Positions 34,709-54,748 are shown, counted from the stretch's first letter. The stretch is 64,000 nucleotides of DNA from a virus (IMGVR_UViG_3300022468_000627:27892-91891); one strand, 5' to 3'. Program-made: numbers and translations. Notes: generated by a model from the letters alone, not told the origin.

Positions 34709-35616
34709 TGCTTACTCCGTTTGTTGAGACCGATTTTCAAATCGCGCATGAAGCGCTCCACCCATTCAGCGGCCTGGTCCGGCGGGATGCTGAATTGATC
34801 GGCGGCGAACTTGACGAGCTCGCGAGCGCCAGGGTTCTGGCCGGCAGAGCCGGCTCGCATGCCTCCCGCGAGCTTGTCGCGGAAGTCGAAATAGGAATGG
34901 ATCTTGTGATCCAGGGACTGGCGGCGCATCGCGGCCCCACCAGACAGCACGGCCGAGTCGGTGCCGTAGCCGGCCTCCAGGGCCTTGGCGAAGTCCAGGC
35001 CGGCCGACGTCCACGACTTTGCGAACGCGCCCAGCGGGATCGTCGCGCAGGTGCCAACGTGCTGGTTCACCGGGGTCTTGCTCACGCCGATGTTGGTCCA
35101 ACGAACCTTGGACACGATGGCCTTGCGCAGCTTGGTCTTGGGGTCGATCTCGATCCCCTTCGCCAGCACGGCGCCGCCGACCGACGGATACCAGCGCTGC
35201 GGCGGGTTCAGGTCGGTGATGCTCGACCAAAAGTCGTTGGCACGCTCAGCCGCCGGGCCGCTGCCGGTGTAAATCTCAGCCTTCACGAACGTGGTCTTGC
35301 CGGTCTGGCGCACGTCGATGGGACGGCCAATCTCATAGAGCTCGCAGCCAGGAATCCCGGGGCGGCCCTTGGCCGGGTCCGGCTTGCCGATCAGCGTGTA
35401 ATGGTCGATGTCGATGTTGCCGTAGCGCTTGAAGTAGTCGGCCGACTCGGCGAGCGCCTTGGCGGCGATGACCTCGTCCTGCTGGTCGACGCCCTCATTG
35501 CTGGCCTCAAAGTAGACGACGCGCTGCCCGCCATCGGTGTGAGGCGTGGCCTTGAGCATGTTACCGATGCTCAAATAGTCGGGGATGCCCGCAAGCAGCT
35601 GGTCGTCGCTGAACAT
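34705..35616 (-). CDS. Prohead protease (HK97-type serine protease-like)
   Basis: 303 aa. GNIDIDHY and RWTNIGVSKTPVNQ resemble the His and Ser blocks. Sits before scaffold and capsid. The C-terminus repeats a capsid N-terminal motif. Confidence 0.65.
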   Translation of the reverse strand: MFSDDQLLAGIPDYLSIGNMLKATPHTDGGQRVVYFEASNEGVDQQDEVIAAKALAESADYFKRYGNIDIDHYTLIGKPDPAKGRPGIPGCELYEIGRPIDVRQTGKTTFVKAEIYTGSGPAAERANDFWSSITDLNPPQRWYPSVGGAVLAKGIEIDPKTKLRKAIVSKVRWTNIGVSKTPVNQHVGTCATIPLGAFAKSWTSAGLDFAKALEAGYGTDSAVLSGGAAMRRQSLDHKIHSYFDFRDKLAGGMRAGSAGQNPGARELVKFAADQFSIPPDQAAEWVERFMRDLKIGLNKRSKQ

Positions 35617-40748: not shown

Positions 40749-40754
40749 CCGCCC

Positions 40755-40770
40755 ATCGTAGGGTCACGAC
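40755..40770 (-). promoter_or_regulatory. Conserved late-promoter-like motif (copy h)
   Basis: Minus strand GTCGTGAC CC TACGAT, then GGGCGG, then ATG 40748. Confidence 0.5.
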
Positions 40771-40771
40771 C

Positions 40772-41101
40772 TCAAAGCCCGCCCGCGTCCGGGTCCACCA
40801 GCCGGAACGTGCCGCCGCCGGCCAGGTCTTCGACCTCGCTGCCGCCCAGGTTGAAACTGGCGTTCTTGCGGTACTCCTCGACGGCCGCCGCCAAGGCCTC
40901 CTGCAGGTCGGCGTGGTGCGGCATGCGGGCGGTCACGTCGGTGTCGATGTGGTCGCCCAGCAGGTGCAGGTTGTCGCGGGTGTAGAAGCGCAGCAGGGCG
41001 CGCTTGACAAGGTACCAGTAGACCCCGAAGGCGCGGTACCGGCGGGGGTCATCCTGGAGCAGCTGCAGCGTGCTGGCCGCGAAGGTTTTCGGGTCGATCA
41101 T
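40772..41101 (-). CDS. Hypothetical protein
   Basis: 109-aa ORF. ATGA overlap with the stop of the 2065-aa gene. Confidence 0.6.
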   Translation of the reverse strand: MIDPKTFAASTLQLLQDDPRRYRAFGVYWYLVKRALLRFYTRDNLHLLGDHIDTDVTARMPHHADLQEALAAAVEEYRKNASFNLGGSEVEDLAGGGTFRLVDPDAGGL

Positions 41102-44100
41102 GCGGCCTCCTTGGTGGATTCGCGGGCACTGGCGGCCTGCAGGTATTCGTCGATCACGTCACCCAGCTTACGGCCTGCACGGCGCTGTCCCTCGGGGTCG
41201 TAGCCGTAACCGCTGGGCGCCGAAAACGGACCACCCAGGTTGTACTGGCGAAGCTGACCAACGGTTTGATCAAGGATGCCCATGCGGCCGGCCACCTTCT
41301 TGATCAGGTTCAGCGTGCGCACGCTCTGGCTGTAGTGCCCGGCGATCGCCCGCAACGTGGCTTCATCGTTCTTGCTCAGGCCGTGGCGATCGCCGGACTC
41401 AGCAATGGCCTCGGCGAGGTCATTGTGGCCGCTGTTGCGCGCCATGCGGATCAGCGCGGCATGCTTGGTCTGGTTTTCGCCGCCAGTCGCGTAGCCGTCA
41501 TGGCCCACAGTGCCCACCTTGTCGTCCAGCTCGCCCAGGTGGCGCATCCGGGCCCAAGCCAGCGCCAGCGCCTCTTTCGGGTAGCTGGCCTTGAAGTCGC
41601 GCGCGTAGCCGCCCTCGGCCTTGCCGCCCAGCTTCGCCAGCGGGAACAGCGCATTCAGCACCTCGTGCCCAGCCTTGGCGCGTCGGATGGTTTGCATCTG
41701 CTCGTCCTGCAGCCGGGCCTTGGCCTCCTTCTCCAGCGCCGACGACACGCCGTACATCCGCTGGCCGCTTAGGCTGTCCAGTAGCCCCTTCATGGGATTG
41801 ATGTGCCGATCGCTGTAGCTTGCGCCCTGGTACTCGCGCGCCGCCAGCACGTCATAGCCACCGCTGCGCGGTCCACGCCCCTTGGACCGGTTGACCGACC
41901 GGCTGCTGATACGGGCGCCGCGCCGCGCGTCCATCCATGCCTGAATGGCTTTCTCTTTCGCCGCCTCGGTGGGAAGCAGGTAGTCGTGAGTCTCGTGCTT
42001 GTCCTTGGTCGAGTAGCTCGGCACCTTCTCGATCTTGCCCGTAGCCTTCTCAACCATGTAGGCGTCGCCCAGGTCGTGAAAGCCCTTGTACGAGGCCTTC
42101 GCATCCTTGATCTGCCGCTGAATCAGGTCGTTGTTTTTCTCCAACACAGCCGACGGCATGGCCTTCACATCCTCCCACTTGGTGAGGCTGTTCAGCTTCT
42201 CGTTGGCGGCGGACTCCATGGCCTTGCCCACCTCCTCGGCCTCGGCGTTCTTGTCGAAGTCGTAGGGCTTGGCGTCGCTCAGCTCGGACATGGGCAGCGT
42301 CACCTTGTGGCCGCCGCTCGTGTCGGCGTAGCGCCGCATGGTCACGGTGCCGGCCTTCATGTTGACGCCCGTCACCACCATCTTGCCGTCCTTGGCGAAG
42401 TCCAGGCCGACGTCGGCGGTCAGCACCGTGCCGGTCTGGGGGTGGATCAGCACGTCGGTCGCGCTGTCGAGCGCGGCCTTGGCCGACCAGTATTTGTTGT
42501 TGAACAGGCTGGTCTTGGTGGCCTCGATTTTTTGGCGCAGCCGCTGGGCGCTGGTCGTGTTCTTGTTCTTGAGCGAGCCGTAGCTGCGCGACATTTCGGT
42601 GAAGCGCACGAACTCGGCCTGGGCGTCGGAGCGCTTGCCGGCGTCATAGCGGGCGGTGGCCGATGCCTTGTCCTCCGCGTACTTCTTGCGGGCCTCCTCC
42701 GGGTCGGCCGCCAGCATGATGCGCATGTCCTCGTTCGAGAACGAGCCCTCGCGCGCCAGGTTCTCGACGCGGTCGCCGCCGTTCCACAACAGGTCCTGCC
42801 AATCCTTCTTGGCCGCCACGGCCTGGTAGCGGTAGCCGTCGAAGCTGCCCTTGGACAGGTAGGTGTGGATGCGCAGCGACTCGTTCATGTTGCCCTGGCG
42901 CAGGCCGCGCCCGTTGCGCTGCTGCAGCGTGGCGGGCTCCCACGGCACGTCCATGTGGTGGATGTCGGTCGTGGTCTTCTGCATGTTCAGGCCCTCGGCC
43001 ATCGTGGCGTTGCCCACCACGACCTTGAGCTTGCCGGCGTTGAAGGCGTTGGCGATGTTCTGCCGCTTCACCGCCGAGCCGGCGACCTGGGCGTTGATGA
43101 CGCCGATCTCCTCGCGCTTGAACCCGGCATCGACCAGGGCGGCCACGATCTTGTCGTGGCTGTCGATGTACTCGCTGAACACGATCTGGCCGCCGTCCTT
43201 GCCGCCCTCGACGCACTGCTTCGCCAGGTGCGCGTACTTCGGGCTGCTGGCGCCGCCGTACTTGGCCTTGTCCAGCAGGGACAGGTCCAGCGCCGCCTTG
43301 TTCATCTTGTCCATGATGGCGAAAATGTGCGCGTCGCCGGTGGCGTCCTTCTTGCCAGCCGACTCCTCGGCCAGCTCGCGCAGCTCGGCGTAGACGGCCT
43401 GCTGCGCCGGGCTCATGTCCACCAGGTGCAGCCGGTCGTCGCGCTCGGGCAGCTTGAGCCCCACCTGGTCGGCGGTGCGACGGTCGATGTAGCGCGCCAT
43501 GATCTCGCGCAGCTCGTCCAGGTTCTTGAACCCGGACACCACGGTGGCGTCCTCGATGTCGCCGCCGGTGCCCAGCACCTTGTCGGCCTTGAACTCGCAG
43601 AAGCGGTCCAGGAACTCCTCGCTGTTGCGGATCTTGATGCGCTCAAAGGCCTCGGGCGCGATGTGCGACAGCATGGAGTAAATCTCCAGCGGGCTGTTCT
43701 TGGTCGGCGTGGCCGTCAGGCCGTAGACGTTCTTCCCGCCGTTGTTGTCGCGCACCCACCGGGTCTTGAGGTTGAAGTCGAGCGCGCGGTTCGACAGCCC
43801 CTGTCCGCCCAGGAATTTCGGCTGCTCGCCGAACCGGGCCCGGGCGGCGTACAGGTTCTTCTGGTGGTGCATTTCGTCCTGGATCAGCATGTCCGCGCCG
43901 AGCTCGTTGAAGTAGATGGCGTCGGTGCGGTCGCTAAACTCGCGCTGGGCGATGTGCTGCTCGTAGCGCTCCTTGATGGCCTTGCGCCGCTTGTCGCCGG
44001 CGTTGCCCAAGGACTCGCCACGCTGCACCCAGAAGTCGTCGCTGTAGTAGCGCTCCTTGGTCTCGGGATCGAGGTCGACCTCCTCGAACGCCGGCTCGCT

Positions 44101-47100
44101 GATCAGGATGAAATCGTAGTCGTTCTGGCGCAGGTCGTGGTACTTGCGTTTTCGCTCGCTCGCCGAGTCGTCCTTGCCGATCAGCGAGCCGTCTTTGGCC
44201 CGGCTGAAATTCGCGCCGACGGTCAGCACGCGGGCGCCCGGGAACCAGGTCTCGGCCTCCTCAAACCAGTTGGCCAGCACCGACTTGGGCACCACGATGA
44301 TCGGGCGCTTGGCCTGGCCGTTGACCTTCGCCATGCGCGCCAGCAGCAGGCCGCCCAAGGTTTTTCCCAGGCCCACGTCGTCGGCCACGATGCCCTTGCC
44401 CAGCGCCAGGGACTTGCGCAGGCTCGACCAGCGCCAGTCGCGCACCGTGCGGTCGGCGGCCAGGCCGGGCACGTCGATGGGCGAATTGCTGAACTCGGGG
44501 GCCACGTAGCCCCGGAAGCTGCGGTTGTAGAGGTCTTCGACGCGGTCGCGGTGGGTGCTGCCGCACAGCCACTCCTTGAACTCCGCATTCATGGCCTCGA
44601 CGCGCGGCAGGTCCTCCTCCTTCCGAATGCCGGTGCGGTTGAGGTACTTGTCGATCAGCTTGGTGTCGCCGTACTGGTTGCCGCCAGCCACGTGGTACAG
44701 GCCGTCGGCGAACGTGATCTCGACGGGCGCTTGCTTCTTGGTCCAGTCATTGGCCTCCGGCCCATCGAACTGGCGCCAGTTGAGGTACGCGGCCAGGACG
44801 TCGGTGGGCACGAACGCGCTGTTCATCTGGAAATCGACGTCATCCAGCGACTTCGCGTCGATTGCCTTCTCCAGGCGCTCGACCTGCAGGCGGCGCTTGT
44901 CGGCCATGTCAGGCTCGGAGCCGGCCTCCAAGGCCGCCCGCGCAGCGTCCAGCTTGGGCCACAGCTCGCCGGTCAGGTAGGCGTCCATCGTGGTCCACTG
45001 GCCGCCGCCGGCGTAAGCGTAGCGCGGGTCGGCCGCCAGCTGGTCCAGCACCTCGTCGGCATTCTTGCCCAGGCGCTCGGACAGCTCGCCGGCCGTGAAC
45101 GTGCCGCTGTCGCGCTCCAGCGCCATGCTTTGGGCGGCGCTGTCGAACGTGCCCTCGGTCTTGCGCGTTCGCCCGGCCACCAGGTCGGACAGCTTGCCCT
45201 GGCGGTCCACGGCGCCGATCAGCGCGTACAGGCTCTTGTCGGCCATGGCGGCCGCCATCAGCTCGGGGTCGTCAGCCGGCACGCCGTGCTTCTCGACGTA
45301 GGCGCGAATGCGTGCCTCCAGCGCCGGGCGGTCAACGGCCTCCATGCCGGACGCCAGCCGGCCAATGTCGGCGGCCAGCTCCTGCGCCTGGCTGATCGAC
45401 TCGGTCTGCATGAACTCGTCGAGGCGGTGCCAGCGCGGCGGGTCGCCCTGCAGGATCAGGGTGACGCCATCCACCACCTTGGTGTCGCCCACCTTGGCGG
45501 CGTTGGCGTAGGGCCGGCGGAACGCTGCCGAGATGGCGCGCTCCTTGGCGGCCTCGTCGTCGCCCAGCGCCTCCAGCACCTGGTGCATGGACACGGGCGC
45601 TGTCTCGGCCGCCGGGCGGAACGCGGCGATCTCCTCGGGCACGCCCTGCATGGAGCCTTCGACCGTGATGTCGCTGCCCATGCCGGCCTTGGCGCGCCAG
45701 CCCTCGGTCATCGTGCCCAGCACGTTCTCGGCGCCGCGGCCCGTGAAGTAGCCGCCGGCCAGAAACTCCTCGTCCCAGACGCCCAGCTTCTGCAGCGTGG
45801 CCTGGTCAACCGTGCCCAGCGCGCCGGCCACGTCGTCTGGCCGCTTGCGGAAGTAGACGACGTCGGTCGTCACCTCGGTGTGCGAGTGCTCGAACGCCGT
45901 GTTGGGCATGCGCTGGGCGCCCAGGAATTCGCCCTTGCGCAGCAGGTTCTCGCGGAACGCCCGGGCCGACTTGCTGTCCATGATGCCGGTCGGCACCACC
46001 AGCGCCACCAGGCCGCCGGGCTTGCACTTGTCCAGCGCGGTGTCGGTGAAATACTGCTCGGCCGTGCTGATGTTGACCTTGTCGTCCTTCGCCAGGAAGC
46101 CGCGTGGGCCGTAAGGCGGGTTGCCGATGACCACGTCGAACTGGCGGTCATCGGTCGTGGCGAATCGCTCGAAGCCGGATGTGATGATCTCGTGTCGGTC
46201 GCCGTGCAGCGCGTGGGCCGCCTGGGCGCTGGTCGGGTCCAGCTCGACGCCGGTCACGCGCACGCCGGCCGGCGCCGTGTGCAGGAACACGCCGGTCGCG
46301 CAGCTCGGCTCCAGGGCTGTGCCGTGCTGGAAGCCCAGCGCCTGCAGCGCAGTCCACATGCCGCGCGCCACGTCGGGGTCGGTGTAGAACTCGTTCAGGC
46401 TGTCGCCACAGCCGCCGTTGCCGCTGTACTGGCGGAACTGCGCCAGATCGCCGGCGGTGAACGGGCCGCCCTCGGCCAGGCGCTCGACGACGGCGGCGTT
46501 GATGGCGCGGCGCTTGGCCTTGCTGGTGCCGGCGGCCACGCCGAACGGGGCCGCGGGCTCGTGGGCAACGGCTTGGGTCGGCGCGGGCTCGGGAGCCGGT
46601 GCCGGGGTAGGCTCAGGCGCTGCGGGCGCCCGGGCCTCGACGGGTTTGTTCTTGAGGTGCTTTTCCCGGATGAACCAGCCGCCCTGGTGGCGCATGGTGT
46701 ACGGGTCGATCTCCCGGGCCTGCGCTTCGGTCAGGTCGGTGCGCACGACGCCGCGCAGCACCTTGCCCTTCTTGGCGGTGCGGTACTCGACGAGCGGGAG
46801 GTCGGGCGCGGGCGCGGCCGCAGGAATCGGTTTTGCGCTGGGCTCGGGTTCCGCAACCGGTTTTGCGCTGGCGGAATCGGTTTTGGGCGCCTCGGGCGCC
46901 TGGCTGAACAGGTCGGCCTGCTTCTCGGCTGCGGGCTCGGCCTGGGCCGGCTTGGGCGCCGCGCCCAGCATCGCCCATACCGCCTCGGGCGTGGTCTTGC
47001 CCACCTCGGCCATCTTGGCGATCAGCTGCTGCTGTTGCCCCTCGGGTAGGCCAGCCAGGATCTTCGCCATGCCGGCCGGGCCGCCGTAGCGCCCCAGGAA

Positions 47101-47295
47101 CGTGTCGAGCTTGCTGCGCCGCTTTGCCGGCTCAGGCGCGGCGTGGTGGCCGCCGAACAGCGAATGCTGCTTGACCGCCAGCTTCTGGATGCGGACGTGG
47201 GGCTGCACGACAGTGCCGTCCTTGCGGACGTGGGCAGCCACGTGCACCGGGGCGTCGAACAGGGCGAGTTGGGATTTCGTGAAGAAAACGAGCAT
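41098..47295 (-). CDS. Giant (2065 aa) N6-adenine methyltransferase / SNF2-type helicase fusion (DarB-like), candidate virion-packaged anti-restriction protein
   Basis: SAM motif LEPSCATGVF, catalytic NPPY (nt 46111-46122), helicase motif I DDVGLGKT (GLGKT at 44359-44373), motif II QDEMHHQKN, motif III LTATPTKNSP, motif V/VI NATMAEGLN..EPATLQQRNGRGLRQGN. Confidence 0.9.
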   Translation of the reverse strand: MLVFFTKSQLALFDAPVHVAAHVRKDGTVVQPHVRIQKLAVKQHSLFGGHHAAPEPAKRRSKLDTFLGRYGGPAGMAKILAGLPEGQQQQLIAKMAEVGKTTPEAVWAMLGAAPKPAQAEPAAEKQADLFSQAPEAPKTDSASAKPVAEPEPSAKPIPAAAPAPDLPLVEYRTAKKGKVLRGVVRTDLTEAQAREIDPYTMRHQGGWFIREKHLKNKPVEARAPAAPEPTPAPAPEPAPTQAVAHEPAAPFGVAAGTSKAKRRAINAAVVERLAEGGPFTAGDLAQFRQYSGNGGCGDSLNEFYTDPDVARGMWTALQALGFQHGTALEPSCATGVFLHTAPAGVRVTGVELDPTSAQAAHALHGDRHEIITSGFERFATTDDRQFDVVIGNPPYGPRGFLAKDDKVNISTAEQYFTDTALDKCKPGGLVALVVPTGIMDSKSARAFRENLLRKGEFLGAQRMPNTAFEHSHTEVTTDVVYFRKRPDDVAGALGTVDQATLQKLGVWDEEFLAGGYFTGRGAENVLGTMTEGWRAKAGMGSDITVEGSMQGVPEEIAAFRPAAETAPVSMHQVLEALGDDEAAKERAISAAFRRPYANAAKVGDTKVVDGVTLILQGDPPRWHRLDEFMQTESISQAQELAADIGRLASGMEAVDRPALEARIRAYVEKHGVPADDPELMAAAMADKSLYALIGAVDRQGKLSDLVAGRTRKTEGTFDSAAQSMALERDSGTFTAGELSERLGKNADEVLDQLAADPRYAYAGGGQWTTMDAYLTGELWPKLDAARAALEAGSEPDMADKRRLQVERLEKAIDAKSLDDVDFQMNSAFVPTDVLAAYLNWRQFDGPEANDWTKKQAPVEITFADGLYHVAGGNQYGDTKLIDKYLNRTGIRKEEDLPRVEAMNAEFKEWLCGSTHRDRVEDLYNRSFRGYVAPEFSNSPIDVPGLAADRTVRDWRWSSLRKSLALGKGIVADDVGLGKTLGGLLLARMAKVNGQAKRPIIVVPKSVLANWFEEAETWFPGARVLTVGANFSRAKDGSLIGKDDSASERKRKYHDLRQNDYDFILISEPAFEEVDLDPETKERYYSDDFWVQRGESLGNAGDKRRKAIKERYEQHIAQREFSDRTDAIYFNELGADMLIQDEMHHQKNLYAARARFGEQPKFLGGQGLSNRALDFNLKTRWVRDNNGGKNVYGLTATPTKNSPLEIYSMLSHIAPEAFERIKIRNSEEFLDRFCEFKADKVLGTGGDIEDATVVSGFKNLDELREIMARYIDRRTADQVGLKLPERDDRLHLVDMSPAQQAVYAELRELAEESAGKKDATGDAHIFAIMDKMNKAALDLSLLDKAKYGGASSPKYAHLAKQCVEGGKDGGQIVFSEYIDSHDKIVAALVDAGFKREEIGVINAQVAGSAVKRQNIANAFNAGKLKVVVGNATMAEGLNMQKTTTDIHHMDVPWEPATLQQRNGRGLRQGNMNESLRIHTYLSKGSFDGYRYQAVAAKKDWQDLLWNGGDRVENLAREGSFSNEDMRIMLAADPEEARKKYAEDKASATARYDAGKRSDAQAEFVRFTEMSRSYGSLKNKNTTSAQRLRQKIEATKTSLFNNKYWSAKAALDSATDVLIHPQTGTVLTADVGLDFAKDGKMVVTGVNMKAGTVTMRRYADTSGGHKVTLPMSELSDAKPYDFDKNAEAEEVGKAMESAANEKLNSLTKWEDVKAMPSAVLEKNNDLIQRQIKDAKASYKGFHDLGDAYMVEKATGKIEKVPSYSTKDKHETHDYLLPTEAAKEKAIQAWMDARRGARISSRSVNRSKGRGPRSGGYDVLAAREYQGASYSDRHINPMKGLLDSLSGQRMYGVSSALEKEAKARLQDEQMQTIRRAKAGHEVLNALFPLAKLGGKAEGGYARDFKASYPKEALALAWARMRHLGELDDKVGTVGHDGYATGGENQTKHAALIRMARNSGHNDLAEAIAESGDRHGLSKNDEATLRAIAGHYSQSVRTLNLIKKVAGRMGILDQTVGQLRQYNLGGPFSAPSGYGYDPEGQRRAGRKLGDVIDEYLQAASARESTKEAA

Positions 47296-47325: not shown

Positions 47326-47341
47326 ATTGTGCTGTCACGAT
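47326..47341 (-). promoter_or_regulatory. Conserved late-promoter-like motif (copy i)
   Basis: Minus strand ATCGTGAC AG CACAAT. Overlaps the stop codon of 47335..48558. Confidence 0.4.
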
Positions 47342-48558
47342 GCCGGCGGCGCCGTAATGCTGGCTGCAATTGCCTGGAGCGCCTTCTTGGGTGCGACGAA
47401 TTCCTTTTTGGCCCCCATGTCGGTGTGGCCAACGCGGATCAGGTCGGCGATGTGCGGCCGCACTGCGCGCGAGCTGATGCCGAACACCTTTGCGGCCGCA
47501 GGGATGAACCACTCCAGCCCAGCCGAGCCATCGCGCAGACCGAGCAGCTTGAGGTCGGCGTCCGAGGCCTCGCCGCCAGACAGCAGGCGATCGCGCAGAT
47601 TGCTCACCGCCCCAGCGTGGTCAGCAGCCGCCTTATCGTGGGTTGCACGTGTCTGCAGCGACTGGCTGGCAGCGTTGACCGCATCCTCGGGCTTGGCGTG
47701 GTAGTTCCCCAGCACCTCGCCGTTGACCTCGACGCCGTAGTGCCCACTGATCAGCCCCTTGCCGCGTCGCCATTTCGCGCCCGGGATGTCAGCCAGCAGG
47801 TGGTCGTGCTCGCCGGGCGGCGCAGGGCCCGCGCTCTCGCCCCCGAACAGGTCACGAGTGTCCTTCACCGGGTCCTTGCCGGCATACGGGCTCGGCCCCA
47901 TCGGCTTGCCGCTGCTGGCACCGCCGAACAGGCTCATCTGCCCGGGACCGCCAGGCGTGCCGTGGGCCGCCCGCCCGTGGTAGCCGCGCGCGTTGACGAT
48001 CCGGCCGCCGCGCAGGTACGGGCCGACGTAGCCCTTGAAGAACAGCACGACGGCGGGCTGGGCCTTGATCATGGCCGGCGCGTTGCGCGTGGCGCGAACC
48101 TTGGCGATGAACTCGGCCACCGGCATAGCCGTGATGCCGCCGAAGAATCGCGGATCGTCGTAGTGCTCCAGGTAGGCGTCGCGGGCCTCGTCCATGCTGG
48201 CGAAGTTGATCATGCACTTCTGCTCGTCGGGCGTGTCCCACTGTTTGCGCTTCATCTGCTGCACGACGTAAACCTCGGGCGCGTCCGGGTAGCTGCCAAT
48301 GAACACGTCCACCGGGTCACCATCCACTCCAAGCGTGCCCAGGATCTCGCCGTAGGCGTAGCGAAACACCGTGCGCCAAGCCTTGCCGGTCTCGTCGACG
48401 CCCTCGCGCACCGTGCCCTCGGGATGCTCGATGGCAATGGTCAGGCCGTGCCAGTCCTGGCGCAGCTTGGGGTAGTCGCCGGACTTCGCCTGCTCGGGCG
48501 TCGGGTCGCCGCCGATCATGGTGCGGGTGGCCGGATGGGATTTCAGGAGGATGATCAT
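47335..48558 (-). CDS. Inorganic-pyrophosphatase-like domain protein with unknown C-terminal half
   Basis: 407 aa. IAIEHPEGTVREG..YAYGEILGTLGVDGDPVDVFIG..DEQKCM resembles family I PPase blocks (E.P.G.., YG.iP.T..DGDP.DV). ATGA overlap with the MuF stop. Confidence 0.7.
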   Translation of the reverse strand: MIILLKSHPATRTMIGGDPTPEQAKSGDYPKLRQDWHGLTIAIEHPEGTVREGVDETGKAWRTVFRYAYGEILGTLGVDGDPVDVFIGSYPDAPEVYVVQQMKRKQWDTPDEQKCMINFASMDEARDAYLEHYDDPRFFGGITAMPVAEFIAKVRATRNAPAMIKAQPAVVLFFKGYVGPYLRGGRIVNARGYHGRAAHGTPGGPGQMSLFGGASSGKPMGPSPYAGKDPVKDTRDLFGGESAGPAPPGEHDHLLADIPGAKWRRGKGLISGHYGVEVNGEVLGNYHAKPEDAVNAASQSLQTRATHDKAAADHAGAVSNLRDRLLSGGEASDADLKLLGLRDGSAGLEWFIPAAAKVFGISSRAVRPHIADLIRVGHTDMGAKKEFVAPKKALQAIAASITAPPAS

Positions 48559-49712
48559 TCGCGGTCTTTCTCGCCCTGGGCGAGCTGGGCGCGGATCCAG
48601 TCGCCGAACTCGGCGCTGTCACCTGGCCGGTCGGTGACGGTGGGCACCCAACGCCCCCGGCAATGCGGGTGCACCAGCCCGGCAGGCACGGTCCACATTT
48701 CGTCCGCCTCGCGCTCGACGAAGGCGTTGCCCACGCGCTTGCGCGGGCTGGCGCTGCGCCCGATGTTGTTCTTCCCCGCCCAAATTTGAGTGTCGGGGTC
48801 CTTGTGCACCATGCCCGGGTCCACCACGGTGACGACCATGCCGTCGATCTTGCGGCAGAACGCGCAGGCGTTCCGGTACTGCTCGACGCGCTTCACCTTG
48901 GTGCCGGCCGGCAGGCTGGAGATGTAGCCCTGGGTCTGGGCTTCGCCCGCTTCGGTGACGGCGATGCGCCGCCAATCGCGGTTGAGCGTGCCGAAGGCGT
49001 CGAGCAGCTTGGTCTCCAGCGACGAGCCAGGGCCCTGCACGCCCAGCGCGCGCTGGGTGACGTGCTCGGCGATGACGCCACGCATGGCGTGCCGCGCGCT
49101 CTCGGCCAGGTGACGCACGTTCTCGGCGCAGCGCTGGGCGGCAAAGTCCATCATCGCACGCTGGGCCTGGGTGGCGCCGAATGCGGCCGCGACCGCCTCG
49201 GTGGTGCCAGGCATCGCCATGATCATGGCGTCGGCCTGCTTGGCGTCAACCTCGCTCATGGCGGCCTGCACGCGACCCATGATGCTCGACCGCGCCGACA
49301 GCCATTCGGCCTCGGTGCGCATGTCCTCGGGCGGCAGGTAGCGCTGCGCCAGGTAGTCCACCGCCAGCATGTGGTCGTCGAGCGTCCACTCGGCCGGCGG
49401 CAGGTGCTCCAGGTACAGCTTGACCAGCGACTTCTCGGCCTCGTTCCAGCGCTCCATGACGCCAGCCGGTCGGGCGATGCGCTCACCGGCCGTGTGCCGG
49501 TGGCCTTCTGTCCACGCCAGCAGCTCAGTGCGGAACGCATCGAGGCGCGCCAGGCCGCGCTGGGTGAACAGCTCGACCAGGCGGGCGATCAGCGGGCTGT
49601 CCATCGGCGCCCAGATACCGTCGTCGTGGTCGTGCCCGGCCTTGCACAGGTACTCCAGCGCGGCGTTCGTGCGCGGCTCGTCGAGGTCGATGATGTCGAT
49701 GAATAGGCCCAT
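48555..49712 (-). CDS. MuF / SPP1 gp7-like head morphogenesis protein
   Basis: 385 aa. RRIAVTEAGEAQTQGY and C-terminal AGLVHPHCRGRWVP match the MuF family R..TE and HPNCRC-type blocks. Confidence 0.8.
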   Translation of the reverse strand: MGLFIDIIDLDEPRTNAALEYLCKAGHDHDDGIWAPMDSPLIARLVELFTQRGLARLDAFRTELLAWTEGHRHTAGERIARPAGVMERWNEAEKSLVKLYLEHLPPAEWTLDDHMLAVDYLAQRYLPPEDMRTEAEWLSARSSIMGRVQAAMSEVDAKQADAMIMAMPGTTEAVAAAFGATQAQRAMMDFAAQRCAENVRHLAESARHAMRGVIAEHVTQRALGVQGPGSSLETKLLDAFGTLNRDWRRIAVTEAGEAQTQGYISSLPAGTKVKRVEQYRNACAFCRKIDGMVVTVVDPGMVHKDPDTQIWAGKNNIGRSASPRKRVGNAFVEREADEMWTVPAGLVHPHCRGRWVPTVTDRPGDSAEFGDWIRAQLAQGEKDRE

Positions 49713-49718
49713 GCTCGC

Positions 49719-49734
49719 ATGGTGCCATCACGAC
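49719..49734 (-). promoter_or_regulatory. Conserved late-promoter-like motif (copy j)
   Basis: Minus strand GTCGTGAT GG CACCAT, then GCGAGC, then ATG 49712. Directly after terminator 49735-49763. Confidence 0.5.
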
Positions 49735-49763
49735 AAAAAGCCGGGGCGGTCTCCCACCCCGGC
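49735..49763 (-). terminator. Intrinsic terminator
   Basis: Minus strand GCCGGGG-(10-nt loop)-CCCCGGC followed by UUUUU. Confidence 0.65.
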
Positions 49764-49928
49764 CTTCGCCGCCTGACGCGCGGTATCGGTCTGGCCCCAG
49801 GCGAGCGGTGCCCGAAGACACCACCAGGAGACGCCGCCCACCCATGAAACGGCACGCCCGTACCAGACTGCGGCCCTTACATCCCGAGGATCCGCTGCGG
49901 TCGACACCCAACCATGCCCTTGCGGGCG
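49735..49928 (-). ncRNA. Predicted small RNA of about 195 nt (promoter motif k to terminator 49735-49763)
   Basis: Discrete unit bounded by motif copy k and an intrinsic terminator, with no credible ORF. Long-range pairing GCCGCCCGC / GUGGGCGGC. Confidence 0.4.
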
Positions 49929-49934
49929 GCCCCC

Positions 49935-49950
49935 AGTGTGGCGTCACGAC
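49935..49950 (-). promoter_or_regulatory. Conserved late-promoter-like motif (copy k), not followed by an ORF
   Basis: Minus strand GTCGTGAC GC CACACT directly after terminator 49951-49976. Confidence 0.45.
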
Positions 49951-49976
49951 AAAAAGAAACCCGCACGAGGCGGGTT
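49951..49976 (-). terminator. Intrinsic terminator
   Basis: Minus strand AACCCGC-CUCGU-GCGGGUU followed by UCUUUUU. Confidence 0.65.
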
Positions 49977-50740
49977 GAAAAGCGGCCGAAGCCACTCAGG
50001 GAGGAGGTTGATGGTGCAGCGCTCGAAGCCCAACGCAATGCGCCAGTGTCGATCCCGACGCCGCCAAAACAGGCCCAGGTTCAATCGACTTACCCCGAGG
50101 CCAACGGCTCTTGCACACCATCACATCAGCGGGCCGGGCTTGATACCGGCTCCACGCGGGGTAACAACGGGCCGCAGGCCGGACCAACCGCCCACTTTCC
50201 CCCGCCCGCTCACTCCTGGCCCTGGCCGCTGGTCGGCTGTACCTCTTGTGCTGGCCTAATGTTCAGGCGTTTCCTTCAGCGCCGCCGCTGATGTGATGGT
50301 CCTCGTCTTTCCGAGGCGTCTCCCGTGGGTGGGTCGACCTGTGGTTTGCATTTATCGGGGCAGACCCACACAAACTGCTACCCGTGCTCGTTGATAGCGG
50401 CCAGGAACCCCCGACCCAAACCATCAAGCGTGATGACTGGCTGGCGCCGACGTGCTTCCCGGGCAACCTAGTGGTCGGAGCTGAAACCGTCTCTCTGTGT
50501 GCCAATCATCACACTTGATGGCCCTGGTTTACAAAGCCAGGCATCAAGGCCGGTTGCCCATCCGGCGCACCCTGAATTCGCGCAAGGCGTATAGGGGCGG
50601 CTCCCATCGCTGGGTTCTGCTGATTTCCCCGCAGTCTCCTACGGTAAGGGGCTCAACTGGCCCAGCAGACGTGTTCCCGGTTTGATTCCCAGCCCGGCCT
50701 GCAAGCGTCGTCGGAATGGTTGAATTCTAACCCAAAACGA
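49951..50740 (-). ncRNA. Candidate large structured non-coding RNA (about 790 nt) downstream of the alarmone hydrolase gene
   Basis: No ORF with coding-type GC3, and visibly lower GC. A 16-bp helix (50117-50132 / 50285-50300). A 20-bp helix (50421-50440 / 50502-50521) whose two non-Watson-Crick positions are G.U on the minus strand but C.A on the plus strand. Ends at an intrinsic terminator. Confidence 0.4.
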
Positions 50741-51337
50741 TCAGAGCTTGTCCAGCCCCGTGAGGTACGTTGTAGAAAACAGACGTTCCAGCACCGGATG
50801 CTTGGCGCCCATGGACTGCACCACTTGGCGCGCGTCGTCGAAATACTTGCGCTTGCGGGCTGCGTCCCAATCCGGCGGCGACGCCACCAGGTCGCGCAGG
50901 TTCGCCGTCTTGTCGGCCATCTTCACAGCGGCCGCGCGCGGGCTCATCTTCGCCGCGTGGGCGGCCTGCCATGCGGCCTTGCCGCCAGGACCGAAGTCCG
51001 CCGGGTTGGTCAGCTCGGCCACCAGATCGGCGACGTCGTGCCCAAACTCCGCGACGAGGTTCGCGTGCGTGGCACCCGTGTCCTCCATCGTGTCATGCAG
51101 CAGGGCGGCCTGCAGGGTGACGTGATCGGTGATGCCGGCCTCGTCGTGCAGGATGCGGGCCACGGCGCGCGGGTGCTCGATGTAGGGGACCAGCGGGGCG
51201 CCGGGCTTGCCCTTGCGGTACTGGCCGGCGTGGGCCTTGTCGGCGTAGCGGTCGGCATTGCGGACGTGGGGCGAGACGTAGACGCCATCGCGGCGGGTGT
51301 GCCCCCGAACCTGGATCGACTTGAACAGGAGGATCAA
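50741..51337 (-). CDS. Small alarmone hydrolase (RelA/SpoT-type HD domain) with a 28-aa N-terminal shared motif
   Basis: AHAGQYRKG..PYIEHPRAVARIL and AALLHDTMEDT are the RSH hydrolase His and HD..ED blocks. The only usable start is TTG 51337 (TTGA overlap with the upstream stop, AGGGGG 6 nt upstream). The track's ATG 51511 extension is Arg-rich off-frame-type sequence. Confidence 0.8.
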   Translation of the reverse strand: MILLFKSIQVRGHTRRDGVYVSPHVRNADRYADKAHAGQYRKGKPGAPLVPYIEHPRAVARILHDEAGITDHVTLQAALLHDTMEDTGATHANLVAEFGHDVADLVAELTNPADFGPGGKAAWQAAHAAKMSPRAAAVKMADKTANLRDLVASPPDWDAARKRKYFDDARQVVQSMGAKHPVLERLFSTTYLTGLDKL

Positions 51338-51561
51338 GCGGCCCCCTGCTCGGCCGGTTGCTGGGCGGCGGGCTGCTGCTCGCCCTGAGGCCGCTGGCCC
51401 ATCAGGCGCTGCGCCTCGGTTTCGTCGATCTCGTCGCCCCAGTCGATGTCCTTCGGCACGGCGCCCTGGTACGACACGAACTCGCTGCCGTTCCAGACTT
51501 CCTTGGGCCACGCCCGGGCTGGGCCCCGAAACAGCGCTCCCTCGTTCTCAATGAAAATCAT
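51334..51561 (-). CDS. Small acidic protein (75 aa), candidate antitoxin or adaptor
   Basis: ATG 51561 shares its A with the upstream TGA. Strong GC3. Asp/Glu-rich (DIDWGDEIDETEAQ). Confidence 0.55.
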   Translation of the reverse strand: MIFIENEGALFRGPARAWPKEVWNGSEFVSYQGAVPKDIDWGDEIDETEAQRLMGQRPQGEQQPAAQQPAEQGAA

Positions 51562-53003
51562 CACGCAACCCTCCGAAACAACAATGCCATTGTAGCCGCT
51601 TGATCGGATTTGATCAAAGTCTTGTCCTGGCTGCCGTTGCTTTTCGACCACGCATCGTCGTAGATCGCCTTCTGGCGCTTCAAGGCCTCGTAGTACGACC
51701 GGTGGTCATCGTCCGACCAGCTGTCGCCAGGCTCGGGCTCGCCGTACTTGCCTTGCAGCGACCGCGTGATTTCGTAGTCCTTGTGGCCCTTCTCCTTCGC
51801 CAGGGTCATCGCCTTGGTGTGGATCTGCAGCTCGGCCACCATGCCGTTGGGCAGCTTCACGAACGCCATGAGGTCGCGGTAGCCCTCGGCGGTCGGCTTC
51901 GCAAACCGGTTCTTGGGCTTCTGGGCGATCTCCAGGCCGGCGGCTTTCATGTGCTCCAGCGCCTGCTTGACGTGGCCCATGGTGGGCACGCTGATCGTGC
52001 CGCGCACGATGTCGCGCAGCTGCGACCAGTCGCCCTTGTAGTCGGCGTCGACCTTCTCCTTGGCTCGCTTCTCGCCCTTGAGTGGCGCAATGAACAGGAA
52101 GCCGTCGCCGTTCTCCCACTGCTCGGGGGTGATCTGCTCGGGCTTCATCCCGGTCTTGAGGCCCATGGCCTGCTGCACCTTACCCAGCATGCCCCGGAAC
52201 TGCTCCAGGCCCTCGGTGCCCTTCTGCACCAGCTCGTCCCAGCTCTGGGCGGGCTGGTTGACCTTGTCCGGCAGCGCCTCGATCGTGGCCTTGTCGAACA
52301 GCGACGCGGCATCGACCGGCGCCGGCTGGGCCTGCTCCTGGGCGCCCTGCTCGGGCTGGGCGTCATGCGGGCTGGCGTCGGGTGCGCCGTCGCCCTGCCA
52401 GTGGTGCGTGATCTTGTCGTGGGGCACGCGGTGCTCGCCGCCCTTGGGGTCGCGCACTGTGACGCCGTGCTGGCCGGCAGACAGAACCTGGCCGTGGCCG
52501 CGATGCTCGCCGTTCTCGTAGCCGATGTGCTGGCCTGCCTGGGCCGGCGGGCCGCCGATGTCGGTGCTCACCCAGCGCGTGGTCTGCACGCCGTTCTTGT
52601 CGGTGACCTTCTTCTGCTGCAGGCCAGGGCCGGGCGCCGGGCCCGCCTTGAGAAACAACACCGGGCGCCGCCCGAATGCTTTTGCCACCATGGGGTCGTC
52701 CTTGGATTCGTTGGGGGTGGCCACGAAGCGACGACGGCCGCTGGCGTCCTGCACCAGCATGCCGTCCTCGCCGTGGTCGATGACGTCGTAGCGCTGCGGG
52801 ATCCGCTGCTTGTGGCCCAGCACCTTGTCCCAGCGGACTTTCTGGTGCTGGCCGTCGATCTTGACGGTGACGCCGTGGCGGCCGTGCGCGGTCACCTCGC
52901 CGGTGCACGGCTGGCCGCCATGGTGCACGTACAGGTGGTCACCCACCTCGACATCGCCGCGCGGCTCGGGCTCTTTCTGGGGCTTCGGGGGCTTGAAGGT
53001 CAT
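51561..53003 (-). CDS. RelA/SpoT-like nucleotidyltransferase (small alarmone synthetase / toxSAS-like) with N-terminal duplicated His-rich SH3-like modules
   Basis: 480 aa from ATG 53003 (ATGA overlap with the portal stop). The C-terminal half has PLKGEKRAKEKV, LRDIVRGTISV, AEGYRDLMAFV, VAELQIHTKAM, GHKDYE in the order of the RelA_SpoT synthetase blocks. Confidence 0.8.
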   Translation of the reverse strand: MTFKPPKPQKEPEPRGDVEVGDHLYVHHGGQPCTGEVTAHGRHGVTVKIDGQHQKVRWDKVLGHKQRIPQRYDVIDHGEDGMLVQDASGRRRFVATPNESKDDPMVAKAFGRRPVLFLKAGPAPGPGLQQKKVTDKNGVQTTRWVSTDIGGPPAQAGQHIGYENGEHRGHGQVLSAGQHGVTVRDPKGGEHRVPHDKITHHWQGDGAPDASPHDAQPEQGAQEQAQPAPVDAASLFDKATIEALPDKVNQPAQSWDELVQKGTEGLEQFRGMLGKVQQAMGLKTGMKPEQITPEQWENGDGFLFIAPLKGEKRAKEKVDADYKGDWSQLRDIVRGTISVPTMGHVKQALEHMKAAGLEIAQKPKNRFAKPTAEGYRDLMAFVKLPNGMVAELQIHTKAMTLAKEKGHKDYEITRSLQGKYGEPEPGDSWSDDDHRSYYEALKRQKAIYDDAWSKSNGSQDKTLIKSDQAATMALLFRRVA

Positions 53004-54748
53004 GGCTCGAATTTGAAGACGGGCAGGCCGAATGCCTTGGCCATGTCGGCCGGCTCGGACTCGGCGGGCCGGTCGGGCTGCTGGGCGCCAGCGTCGGGCC
53101 GCCCGAAGTCCTGACCGTCCTCGCCGCCGAAGTCCTGGCCGTCGCCGCCCTGCTCGTCCGGCCCGGGACCGCCGCTGGGCTGCTGGCCGGGCTGGCCGAA
53201 GTCTTCTTGCTGGGGCATGGCCTCCTGCTGCCAGACGCCGACCAGCGACGGGTTCAGCGGCGCGTCGCCCCACTTGCCATCGGCCTTTTCGAGCCCATCC
53301 TCGGCACGCATCTCGTTGACGGTCAGCGTCAGCTTCTTGCGCTCGAAAACCTGCTTCTCGTCTTCCTCGTCGAGGCCGGTCCACTGGAACTCGTACTTGT
53401 CGGAGAACTCGCCAATCACGTACTGGCTCATCGTGTCTTCGAGGTAGGCCAGCAGCGGGCGCAGGCCCTTGTCCTTGGAGAATGCCAGCTTCTCCTCGGT
53501 GTCGTTGCCGCTGAGCGAGCTGGTGCCCGACGTGAAGCTCTCGAAGTTGATTTCGTCAGGTGCGATGCCGTAGATCGCGCAAATGATCGACCCCAGGAAG
53601 GTCATCCATTTGCTGAACATAATTTCGCTGGCCTGCTCGCCGAAGCTCTCGAATTTGGCCGCCGACTCCTGGTCTTTCGACACCATCACCGGCAGCGTCC
53701 AGGCATTGTTGATGCCCTTGACCATGCCGTTCCAGTACCGCTTGAACGCCGAAATGTCCTCGTCGGCGTAGTTGCCGAACAGGTTCAGCACGCCACGCGG
53801 CATGGCGTTGCTGTCGAAGAACTTGGTGTTGTAGGTGAAGGCGTTCAGGAACCCCGTCACCACGCGGATCAGCAGCTCGGTCTCAGCCAGGCCGTAGCCG
53901 CCGGCGATCACGTCGGTGCGCGGGTTGCGCGGCACGTAGATCAGGTCGTCGTAGCTGTAGGCCGTGCGGATCTGGCCCTGCACCACCTGCAGCGCGAAAA
54001 TCTCGTCCTCGCCGCGGTAGCCCTCCTCCGAGCACAGCCGGATGGTGGCGCCGTCCACGGCGTAGACGCCATCCAGGCCCAGCGACTTGTCGCGCTTCCA
54101 CTCGGTCTCGATCGCCATGCTGTCCATGGTCAGGCTGTCGCGCACCAGCTTCTTCATCAGGTTCGGGAAGCTGTCGCGCTTGAGGCGCATGCGCTGGCGC
54201 GGCCGGGTCTCCCAGCCCGAGTTGAGCACGAACGACTCCAGCAGCTTCATGGTCTGCTGCTCGTTCTCGTCCACGTTCTCGGCCTGCTCCTTGCTGGCGA
54301 TCTTGAAGCCCAGGCCCTTGCCGCCCTTCTGCGGCCGGCAGAACCGCTCGACCTGGCGCTGTCGGGTCATGATGACGGCGTTCAGGATGGGGGTCTGCTC
54401 GACCATGGCGCGCATGGCGTCGAACGAGAACTGCCCGGGGCGCTCGAACCAGTCGCCGTTGACGTTGATCTGCAGGTCGTCGATCCACACCGACTGCATG
54501 CCGCGCTCGCCGGCTTTCTTCTCGCGCCCGCCTGGGAACGGGATGATGTTGCCGCGCTGGGCCTTGGCGAATGCCTGGTCCTGCAGGTCCTGGTTGATGT
54601 AGTCGATGATCGGCTGGATGTTCGACGCCGGGATCAGGTCGGACAAAGCGCGCGGCATCGCGGATTTTTGCAGTTCCGCCATGGCCTCCTGCCGCTCGTC
54701 GGCGGGGGCGCGCGGGTCAGCGAGTACAGAGCGGGCAGCGTCGGTCAT
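53000..54748 (-). CDS. Portal protein
   Basis: 582-aa ORF at the head of the head-morphogenesis operon, with the size and acidic C-terminus typical of portals. Motif l upstream. Confidence 0.8.
   Translation of the reverse strand: MTDAARSVLADPRAPADERQEAMAELQKSAMPRALSDLIPASNIQPIIDYINQDLQDQAFAKAQRGNIIPFPGGREKKAGERGMQSVWIDDLQINVNGDWFERPGQFSFDAMRAMVEQTPILNAVIMTRQRQVERFCRPQKGGKGLGFKIASKEQAENVDENEQQTMKLLESFVLNSGWETRPRQRMRLKRDSFPNLMKKLVRDSLTMDSMAIETEWKRDKSLGLDGVYAVDGATIRLCSEEGYRGEDEIFALQVVQGQIRTAYSYDDLIYVPRNPRTDVIAGGYGLAETELLIRVVTGFLNAFTYNTKFFDSNAMPRGVLNLFGNYADEDISAFKRYWNGMVKGINNAWTLPVMVSKDQESAAKFESFGEQASEIMFSKWMTFLGSIICAIYGIAPDEINFESFTSGTSSLSGNDTEEKLAFSKDKGLRPLLAYLEDTMSQYVIGEFSDKYEFQWTGLDEEDEKQVFERKKLTLTVNEMRAEDGLEKADGKWGDAPLNPSLVGVWQQEAMPQQEDFGQPGQQPSGGPGPDEQGGDGQDFGGEDGQDFGRPDAGAQQPDRPAESEPADMAKAFGLPVFKFEP

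Follow-up and report, generated by a model that had tools for sequence, protein, structure and literature searches.

The closest described counterpart of the system considered here is MuF-Apk2, a phage toxin of the RelA/SpoT homologue (RSH) class that forms a three-gene cluster with BcTis1 and Aph1, two immunity proteins that both protect (PMC10083569). Toxins of this type are known from prophages of Bacteroides caccae, S. pneumoniae, Mannheimia and Pasteurella (PMC10083569, PMC12226406, PMC5576092), and in Apk2 clusters the Tis1-like gene is always there and the hydrolase only sometimes (PMC10083569), binding immunities being partner-specific and hydrolases interchangeable (PMC12226406). The DNA analysed here, a 64,000-nucleotide stretch from a virus (IMGVR_UViG_3300022468_000627:27892-91891; hereafter the window, G+C = 67%), carries on its minus strand, just 3' of the portal gene, three genes (positions 50741–53003) for an RSH synthetase, a 75-aa acidic protein and a small alarmone hydrolase (SAH). 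With moderate confidence we read this trio as a phage polymorphic-toxin cassette seated in an accessory slot between the portal and MuF-like minor head genes, a functional equivalent of MuF-Apk2 that would be delivered by the head. Published work on MuF-Apk2 has demonstrated toxicity and immunity in E. coli, not delivery or purpose.

In its layout the locus closely resembles MuF-Apk2. Both lie in a phage head-gene context, both toxins join a (here putatively) head-related N-terminal domain to a C-terminal Tas1-like RSH toxin domain, and in both a small non-enzymatic protein is encoded right downstream, followed by an HD-domain alarmone hydrolase; of these two genes the hydrolase may be lacking but the small one not, and the binding partner appears specific, the hydrolase generic. 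The original prediction for this DNA had singled out a free-standing three-gene version as unusual, but synthetase toxin, small non-enzymatic protein and HD hydrolase is the published Apk2-Tis1-Aph1 arrangement (PMC10083569, PMC12226406), and both the trio and the idea of head-delivered RSH enzymes are already in the literature (PMC10083569, PMC12226406, PMC5576092, PMC5512222). The differences lie in the parts. Instead of a MuF domain the toxin has a double Tudor-like module, the MuF-like protein being a separate gene further downstream that is fused to half of this module only in the related locus L022; the small protein shares neither sequence nor fold with Tis1; the hydrolase is of Mesh1/SAH type, not Aph1 type; and the host phage is a PHB04-like myophage rarely found integrated. 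The libraries and literature searched returned neither the portal-adjacent double Tudor-like module in place of MuF, nor the small-protein family, nor a Mesh1-type instead of an Aph1-type hydrolase, nor a tag common to DarB-like, InPase and helicase neighbours, nor cassette exchange inside a conserved frame.

The catalytic domain has its best sequence, profile and fold match in Tas1/Apk1 (PDB 6ox6), the (p)ppApp synthetase effector of the P. aeruginosa type VI secretion system (T6SS). The two have in common a variant Syn1 (A-P-[IL]-K), a Syn2 of the form D-x-x-R-x-T and the R, E and Q of the ATP site, whereas identity is ~21%, Met stands in for Tas1 N370, Tas1 has a PAAR/T6SS trafficking domain where the phage protein has a portal-adjacent module, and the immunity protein Tis1 has in its place an unrelated 75-aa protein. 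Phage polyvalent proteins (Iyer, Burroughs, Anand, de Souza and Aravind 2017; PMC5512222) are likewise encoded among head genes, and packaging and injection are predicted for their RelA/SpoT, InPase, ParB-like, ART-PolyVal, Zeta-kinase and methylase-helicase domains. With ParB-like or ART inserts, longer homologues of the synthetase fit the definition of such proteins (two or more effector domains in one polypeptide, among virion genes), and the nearest viral folds of the whole synthetase model are large phage polyvalent proteins; the window enzyme may be regarded as a minimal, 'monovalent' member of that group because it has a single catalytic domain. Immunity genes such as accompany the RSH domain here are not discussed in PMC5512222. 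In toxic small alarmone synthetase (toxSAS) modules, finally, an RSH toxin is also countered by a small binding protein or an SAH (FaRel, FaRel2, PhRel, CapRel; PMC7229694, PMC11782079). These are bacterial or prophage toxin–antitoxin or defence loci, unlike the trio with its late head operon, added N-terminal module, Tas1 affinity and lack of a PADLOC match.

Gene junctions and start codons

The portal gene and the trio are arranged as follows.

53000–54748, minus strand: portal protein gene, 582 aa (PF04860 3e-19, phrog_12 2e-42)
51561–53003, minus strand: synthetase gene, 480 aa, with a putative N-terminal head-association module and a C-terminal Tas1-like RSH pyrophosphokinase domain
51334–51561, minus strand: small acidic protein gene, 75 aa
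50741–51337, minus strand: Mesh1-type small alarmone hydrolase gene, 198 aa, TTG start (HD_4 8e-15)

The three minus-strand genes 3' of the portal overlap by the ATGA, one-nucleotide and TTGA junctions that had been proposed. The portal open reading frame (ORF; 54748–53000) ends in GAGCCATGA, its stop overlapping the ATG at 53003 of the 480-aa synthetase ORF (ATGA); the latter stops at 51561, where the ATG of the 75-aa ORF has one base in common with the synthetase TGA (GTGATGA); and the stop of the 75-aa ORF sits within a TTGATC whose TTG, at 51337, starts the 198-aa ORF that ends at 50741. Both proposed starts are borne out by relatives. An MTFK-type N-terminus as encoded from ATG 53003 is found in 40 homologues, and the hydrolase start at TTG 51337 has its counterpart in 14 related loci, where the codon is ATG, GTG or TTG, always reads NTGATC across the small-ORF stop, and follows a Shine-Dalgarno-like AGGA or GGAG by 6–9 nt. 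The sequence blocks quoted in the original prediction (PLKGEKRAKEKV, LRDIVRGTISV, AEGYRDLMAFV, VAELQIHTKAM, GHKDYE, HPRAVARIL and LLHDTMEDT) are all found. Its 'stoichiometric wiring' of the synthetase to the portal finds no support, since an overlap does not itself set stoichiometry and gives way to spacers of 300–720 nt in at least six related loci (L007, L008, L011, L012, L018, L021), which rules out portal coupling as a conserved trait.

The 3' end of the synthetase gene (51589–51617, minus strand) contains, just 5' of the small ORF, a promoter-like TTGATC-17-TACAAT; since it overlaps a conserved coding motif of the C-terminal tail, it was not taken as evidence for separate expression.

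The synthetase domain

51639–52298, minus strand: RSH synthetase domain, aa 236–455 (PF04607 match aa 315–407; model confidence >90; Tas1 by profile and Foldseek)

Profile, model and residue evidence agree that the C-terminal half of the 480-aa protein is a RelA/SpoT-type synthetase, closest to Tas1/Apk1. The RSH motifs occur in order (Syn1 PLKGEKRAKEKV, Syn2 RDIVRGT, Syn3 GYRD, Syn4 ELQIHT, Syn5 GHKDYE), and PF04607 (RelA_SpoT) matches the window protein at 26.5 bits (E 8e-6; gathering cut-off 27) and 38 of 40 homologues, the best of them at 1.4e-8. A single-sequence search returned Tas1/Apk1 as the best solved relative of the domain (E 4e-5), while a family profile reached Tas1 6ox6 at E 2e-10, YwaC and Rel following only at 6e-4 to 1e-2. 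The AlphaFold2 model has a mean predicted local distance difference test score (pLDDT) of 80.5, rising above 90 across aa 236–455, and Foldseek places Tas1 on top (2.6e-8) with RelQ, RelP and Rel next (3e-8 to 1e-4 overall, probability 1.00). CapRel (7ztb) comes much lower among these matches (E 1e-4). The synthetase identification thus stands, borderline as its PF04607 score is; the toxSAS-like affinity first assigned to it does not, Tas1/Apk1 being nearer than tRNA-modifying toxSAS enzymes by sequence, profile and fold. The PADLOC defence-system models matched none of the three trio proteins, and PHROGs and NCBIfam returned no family for either the synthetase or the 75-aa protein.

Across the 40 homologues K309, K317, D331, R334, T336, G374-Y375-R376-D377, E391, Q393 and H407 are invariant. 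D331 corresponds to the catalytic Asp of Tas1, and R334, E391 and Q393 are the counterparts of R330, E382 and Q384 in the ATP site of Tas1 (residue list from PMC12691689). Likeness to Apk/Tas1 was judged by the ATP-site residues R330, K353, N370, E382 and Q384, among which the K353 counterpart aligns ambiguously in the window synthetase (candidate K364) and the N370 position is occupied in the retrieved sequences by M (78), N (55) or L (25). The enzyme would most likely make (p)ppApp, by moving the pyrophosphate of one ATP onto the 3'-OH of a second ATP or of ADP, and so deplete the adenylate pool; the other candidate product is (p)ppGpp.

A small acidic protein exchanged together with the catalytic domain

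The 75-aa protein is acidic (pI 4.3; 13 D+E vs 6 K+R) and is modelled at pLDDT 80 as five strands and one helix (aa 1–56) followed by a disordered, acidic tail rich in Q, E, P and A. It represents a new family, with 278 members in a large protein collection and no counterpart in Pfam, PHROG, NCBIfam or PADLOC, and its ORF comes after the synthetase in all loci sequenced that far. We propose, from its position and its co-variation with the toxin domain, that it is the cognate inhibitor of the synthetase domain, and that its family probably consists of RSH-toxin inhibitors.

This co-variation was measured as the identity of each part to the window in 19 loci, with Spearman rank correlation; the identities refer to one reference and the loci are phylogenetically non-independent. 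The RSH domain and the small protein vary together (rho 0.83, p 1e-5), as does the N-terminal module of the synthetase with the portal (rho 0.82) and with the hydrolase (rho 0.81), whereas the correlation is low for the RSH domain vs the portal (rho 0.31) or the hydrolase (rho 0.29) and for the small protein vs the hydrolase (rho 0.22). Individual loci illustrate both directions. L011 retains a portal, N-terminal module and hydrolase of 80%, 72% and 81% identity, yet its RSH domain has 49% and its small protein ~24%, while Bordetella phage PHB04, with an N-terminal module of 40%, has an RSH domain of 73% and a small protein of 60%. Moreover, three RSH subtypes pair with three small-protein subtypes. 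These identities indicate a joint swap of RSH domain and small ORF, as one cassette, within a conserved frame formed by the backbone-linked portal, N-terminal module and hydrolase, as is usual for toxins with cognate immunity proteins.

Homologues of the small protein with ~60% identity also occur as orphans, in the Caldimonas tepidiphila chromosome between housekeeping genes (L030, 8001–8222) and beside a resolvase in another genome (L028, 8001–8375), with no synthetase or hydrolase within 8 kb in either locus. They resemble orphan immunity genes, and such bacterial copies may serve as host counter-measures.

The Mesh1-type hydrolase

51260–51337, minus strand: hydrolase N-terminal tag LILLFKSIQVRGHTRRDGVYVSPHVR, aa 1–26, ahead of the Mesh1-homologous core from ~aa 28 (kept in all hydrolase homologues)

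That the 198-aa protein is a small alarmone hydrolase, as first proposed, is upheld by an HD_4 match of 55 bits and a full Mesh1 catalytic set, R41, H55, H81-D82, E85-D86, D142 and N146 aligning with Mesh1 R24, H35, H61-D62, E65-D66, D122 and N126. Its relatives mark it as Mesh1-type: human Mesh1 (3nr1) is matched at E 1e-28 over aa 28–185 and PaSAH (6yvc) at 5e-10. Aph1 (7smg), the (p)ppApp-specific type, which has a compact fold without two helices, was considered and rejected, being matched only at E 5e-3 over aa 27–114, far behind Mesh1, Rel and PaSAH.

The gene is absent from L015, L023 and L024. Its role as a dedicated neutraliser is doubtful because it tracks the phage backbone and not the toxin cassette, and because it bears the same N-terminal tag as presumed cargo proteins (see below) it may itself be cargo, or else a generic antidote.

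A portable module in the post-portal slot

The part of the synthetase preceding the RSH domain is built as follows.

52812–52952, minus strand: repeat 1 (R1), aa 18–64, five-stranded beta-barrel, Tudor/ProQ-C-like (pLDDT 85–90)
52716–52796, minus strand: GEDG beta-meander, aa 70–96, with G78-E79-D80-G81 invariant (homologue alignment, model)
52626–52715, minus strand: low-confidence linker, aa 97–126, with motif DPMVAKAFGRRPVLFLKAGP (pLDDT <50 for 103–126)
52563–52625, minus strand: beta-hairpin GLQQKKVTDKNGVQTTRWV, aa 127–147, second half of a bipartite tag (cf. hydrolase GHTRRDGVYVSPHVR)
52401–52541, minus strand: repeat 2 (R2), aa 155–201, second Tudor-like beta-barrel (pLDDT ~90)
52299–52400, minus strand: disordered variable linker, aa 202–235, into which ParB-like or other domains are inserted in homologues

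The two His-rich repeats noticed at the outset are genuine (alignment score 70 vs 34 +/- 6.6, maximum 58, in 500 shuffles), and 16 of the 22 His residues of the protein fall within residues 1–205. A Lys/Pro-rich N-terminus precedes R1, and the barrels give weak matches to Phage_ProQ_C_like and ProQ_C/Tudor-type domains; no MuF match (PF04233) was returned by Pfam for the synthetase. A text search of PMC5512222 for SH3 and Tudor domains gave nothing, which makes a description of the module in that paper improbable. Within the linker K108, F117 and K119 are invariant or nearly so. Homologues of 555–660 aa accommodate a ParB-like domain in the variable linker, and one relative of 928 aa an inserted ART-PolyVal domain.

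An exhaustive search with aa 1–205 gathered 304 representatives, in which the module either stands alone (100–260 aa) or leads a longer protein, the largest of 2130 aa. An RSH domain is present in 52 of the 83 module proteins of at least 400 aa, and ten long module proteins scanned with Pfam carried, as other domains, Zeta toxin kinase, InPase, MuF_C and ART-PolyVal. Where contigs were examined, four of five module proteins were encoded directly after the portal and the fifth after an intervening small ORF. In the post-portal slot the same N-terminal module is thus followed by RSH, Zeta or ART domains, as in L033, L035 and L036 (Zeta-toxin kinase) and L034 (ART-PolyVal + RSH). In Morganella phage Mecenats66 a 152-aa protein consisting of R1, the GEDG meander and R2 stands alone directly after the portal. 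In L022 (875–2386) R1 and the meander are joined to a homologue of a 385-aa minor head protein in one 503-aa ORF, while tag, R2 and RSH domain make up a separate gene (~2600–3917) beginning MQAQENRQPIVLLFAKAG and followed by a type B small ORF and a hydrolase. By analogy with these arrangements, the N-terminal half would be a head-association or delivery module.

Head-gene neighbours and a shared tag

The genes on either side place the trio in the head region of a phage of ~92 kb related to Bordetella phage PHB04, Pseudomonas phage Dolphis and Mecenats66.

48555–49712, minus strand: 385-aa minor head protein, probably of MuF/gp7 type, bounding the accessory slot on its 3' side (conserved in this place in all relatives)
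47335–48558, minus strand: InPase-domain protein, 407 aa (PF18823 3e-39)
36180–47295, minus strand: two giants of 2065 aa (N6-adenine methylase + SNF2 helicase, DarB-like) and 1522 aa (SF2 helicase), by Pfam

The same order (portal, synthetase, small ORF, hydrolase, a variable 0.3–2.3 kb, 385-aa protein, InPase, giant) recurs in 24 IMG/VR loci. In PHB04 the portal gp035 is followed by gp034 (RSH), gp033, gp032 (phosphohydrolase), a NinI-like phosphatase, gp030 and InPase, and then by a DarB-like methylase, a Ulx-like gene, an SF2 helicase, the protease and the major head protein, whereas in Dolphis the slot between the portal and the gp030 homologue is empty. Among 50,697 sequenced phages PHB04 alone has the full synthetase gene. 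Searching 185,579 species genomes yielded eight loci, mostly on phage-size contigs of metagenome-assembled genomes from Burkholderiales and Mesorhizobium; these phages are therefore seldom seen integrated. The evidence for a MuF identity of the 385-aa protein goes no further than weak, sub-threshold matches of its family to Phage_min_cap2 (0.009) and Phage_Mu_F (0.05), each in 3 of 12 members; its Mecenats66 homologue is annotated 'putative minor head protein'.

Both giants look like antirestriction cargo of the P1 DarB type, and the Ulx-like gene of PHB04 (annotated 'Ulx-like anti-restriction') lies in the same block, between the counterparts of the two giants. The DarB-like giants and this Ulx-like gene suggest that the whole portal-to-protease block could be head cargo. 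In phage P1, DarB, Ulx and other Dar proteins are packaged in the head, and their loading depends on DarA and Hdf; such loading has no demonstrated counterpart in the window phage, and P1 differs further in having no RSH or SAH cargo. The InPase, DarB-like and Ulx-like classes have been predicted or shown to be packaged (PMC5512222).

The original prediction also credited the trio with a shared cargo motif. The motif is real, since hydrolase, InPase protein and the two giants all bear it N-terminally, but its first definition was loose; we describe it as a hydrophobic strand ending in K-[SA] (φφφFxK), commonly with a basic hairpin, xTRRDGxxVxPHxR, after it. The hydrolase extreme N-terminus reads LILLFKS...GHTRRDGVYVSPHVR, that of the InPase protein MIILLKS (48558, minus strand), with an internal VVLFFKGYVGPYLRGGRIV, and those of the giants MLVFFTKS...AAHVRKDGTVVQPHVR (2065 aa; 47295, minus strand) and MLPKVRPVLFLKA (1522 aa; 40748, minus strand). 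With chance matches at ~1e-4 per residue, four N-terminal occurrences in adjacent genes are not due to chance. The synthetase carries the motif in its linker and in its C-terminal tail, where K465 is invariant and the hydrophobic run is kept across homologues:

51564–51638, minus strand: disordered C-terminal tail of the synthetase, aa 456–480, ending with a second motif copy LIKSDQAATMALLFRRVA (low pLDDT)

The tag is conserved in PHB04 gp028, gp027 and gp025 and in Mecenats66 ORF61 (loci L001, L031, L027), and it recurs at the domain junctions of the ART+RSH relative; the text of PMC5512222 was not searched for it. A reduced form, MAKAFGLPVFKFEP, lies at the C-terminus of the portal protein, whose tail DMAKAFGLPVFKFEP is echoed in the synthetase linker and keeps the motif in PHB04, Mecenats66 and the trio-less Dolphis. 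The motif may serve to target proteins to the head, be cut by the prohead protease or mark junctions in polyvalent proteins.

Two side observations concern these ends. The last residues of the portal tail (53000–53045; L002 8700–8745; L001; L027) follow a conserved [MLF]xKAFG[LF]P[VL][FM][KR], to which MVAKAFGRRPVLFLK in the synthetase linker is similar. The prohead protease (34705–35616, minus strand; homologues in L031, L027 and L002) has a conserved N-terminal S-[IG]-x-x-M-L-K-A, like the K-[SA] end of the tag, a stretch that hints at K-[SA] as a candidate cleavage site of that protease.

Proposed mechanism and alternatives

In the mechanism we favour, the three genes would be expressed late, along with the head genes, and in the producing cell the synthetase would be restrained by the 75-aa protein as its cognate binding inhibitor, the Mesh1-type hydrolase acting as a backup, generic antidote that reconverts the product. 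The synthetase would be loaded into proheads through its N-terminal module and tag, exit with the DNA and act in the next cell before phage gene expression; the tagged hydrolase may travel too. The effect may be host shut-off, or the deprivation of ATP-dependent defences or competing phages, by an adenylate drain or a rise in alarmone. The injected host-shutdown or anti-defence enzyme with its own neutralisers that had been suggested earlier is thus kept in part, a toxin with neutralisers tied to the head module being a reasonable reading and the hydrolase perhaps being cargo or a generic antidote. Injection is argued by comparison, from domain fusions, the polymorphism of the slot and the neighbouring genes. 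If it holds, alarmone synthesis would be a further virion-delivered function, beside the ADP-ribosylation of T4 Alt and the antirestriction of P1 Dar.

Several points weigh against this interpretation. The PF04607 match of the window synthetase is borderline, 0.5 bit under the gathering threshold, and its counterpart of Tas1 N370 is Met where sister subtypes have Asn. The acceptor specificity of the synthetase cannot be read from its sequence, and (p)ppApp as product is not decided by it, because swaps of Syn motifs leave product specificity unchanged (PMC12226406). Kinship of the small protein with Tis1 (6ox6 chain B) is ruled out, a 20-sequence profile of its family matching zero PDB chains even at E <= 10 and Foldseek of its model against the PDB giving a best E of 1.9, with Tis1 not listed. 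Nor is the family strictly tied to RSH, since the RSH-free Zeta-toxin locus L036 has a distant homologue (63 aa, E 3e-8); the other two Zeta loci examined have none. The non-independence of the loci and the single reference temper the identity correlations, and packaging is read from context and domain fusions alone. Lastly, a co-packaged hydrolase would counter the injected synthetase, unless the aim were ATP turnover and not alarmone build-up.

A wider and more tentative proposal is one that we consider distinctly less probable than head delivery of the cassette as such. The post-portal slot of PHB04-like phages may be an undescribed system for delivering polymorphic effectors, in which the double Tudor-like module docks on the MuF-like minor head protein or the portal, the φφφFxK(+hairpin) tag marks proteins for head loading, and RSH, Zeta-kinase and ART toxin-plus-immunity cassettes are interchangeable. 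In the window phage the tagged Apk-like synthetase, the Mesh1-type hydrolase and the inorganic pyrophosphatase, co-injected, could then cycle ATP to AMP + 2 Pi and collapse the host energy charge within seconds.

Among the alternatives to head delivery the best surviving, though still unlikely, is that the enzymes are not packaged and act late in the producing cell, reprogramming or shutting down host nucleotide metabolism or timing lysis, with the small protein and hydrolase tuning the activity and the N-terminal module anchoring the enzyme near heads or serving another role. The only visible expression context, co-transcription with late head genes, is consistent with this, and a co-encoded hydrolase and inhibitor fit an activity controlled in the same cell. 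Yet unrelated toxin domains (Zeta kinase, ART, InPase) are led by this same, portable N-terminal module, each time in the post-portal slot, and in L022 the module is fused to the minor head protein; the neighbours belong to packaged protein classes, and a drain on ATP during DNA packaging would hurt the phage.

Somewhat less probable again is that the synthetase is a tRNA-directed toxSAS of the FaRel2, PhRel2 or CapRel type, a proposal that concerns the substrate only and is compatible with injection. The fold is common to both kinds of RSH toxin, as the CapRel 7ztb match at E 1e-4 reflects; Tudor/ProQ-C-like repeats could bind RNA; and small alarmone hydrolases are described as able to reverse tRNA pyrophosphorylation (bioRxiv 10.1101/2021.04.30.441581). 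However, Tas1/Apk1 outranks every other RSH by sequence, profile and fold, with CapRel much weaker, the trio has no PADLOC match, and the N-terminal repeats are not specific to a substrate, as they are also paired with kinase and ART domains.

A role in the lysogen has precedents in mycobacteriophage Phrann, where gp29/gp30 exemplify prophage exclusion by an RSH toxin and antitoxin, and in CapRel. We consider it very unlikely that the trio is such a prophage-expressed toxin–antitoxin, abortive-infection or superinfection-exclusion module protecting the lysogen: RSH toxins with antitoxins do play this role elsewhere (PMC7229694), PHB04 is annotated with a 'putative integrase family protein' and the small protein has homologues in bacterial chromosomes, but the trio, whose first gene overlaps that of the portal, belongs to the late head operon and has neither an early nor a moron location, the phages are seldom integrated (eight loci), PADLOC is empty and the bacterial small-protein copies have no adjacent toxin. 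That the synthetase is an inactive structural head protein keeping an RSH-like fold, as the Pfam score just under threshold and the Met at the N370 position might suggest, is highly improbable, given that all catalytic and ATP-binding positions examined are invariant across 40 homologues and that a conserved inhibitor-like protein and an intact hydrolase accompany it.

What phage-borne Apk-type toxins do in infection could be studied more cleanly in this clade than with MuF-Apk2, since PHB04 is cultivable and the toxin gene is separate, so that its deletion would leave MuF intact. Natural variants already supply test cases: Dolphis with nothing in the slot, Mecenats66 with just the module, L022 with its genes split, and the loci with Zeta or ART swaps. 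An unannotated trafficking domain and a short tag could, moreover, predict head-cargo proteins.

The spacer downstream of the hydrolase

Between the hydrolase and the 385-aa gene lies a 1-kb spacer (49713–50740) with no convincing ORF and with terminator-like hairpins on the minus strand at 49976–49958 and ~49805–49736. It looks like a hot spot for accessory genes, because the corresponding interval is 0.3–2.3 kb in relatives and holds a NinI-like Ser/Thr phosphatase in PHB04. Scans of the window for tRNA and Rfam families, and a sensitive Rfam scan of the spacer, gave only weak terminator-shaped matches and no known RNA family. An element of ~53 nt at 50665–50717 (minus strand), just 3' of the hydrolase stop, likewise has no Rfam match; its sequence, ATTCCGACGACGCTTGCAGGCCGGGCTGGGAATCAAACCGGGAACACGTCTGC, is conserved at the nucleotide level in six related loci, and its single copy in the window is predicted to form a nested hairpin with three covarying pairs.

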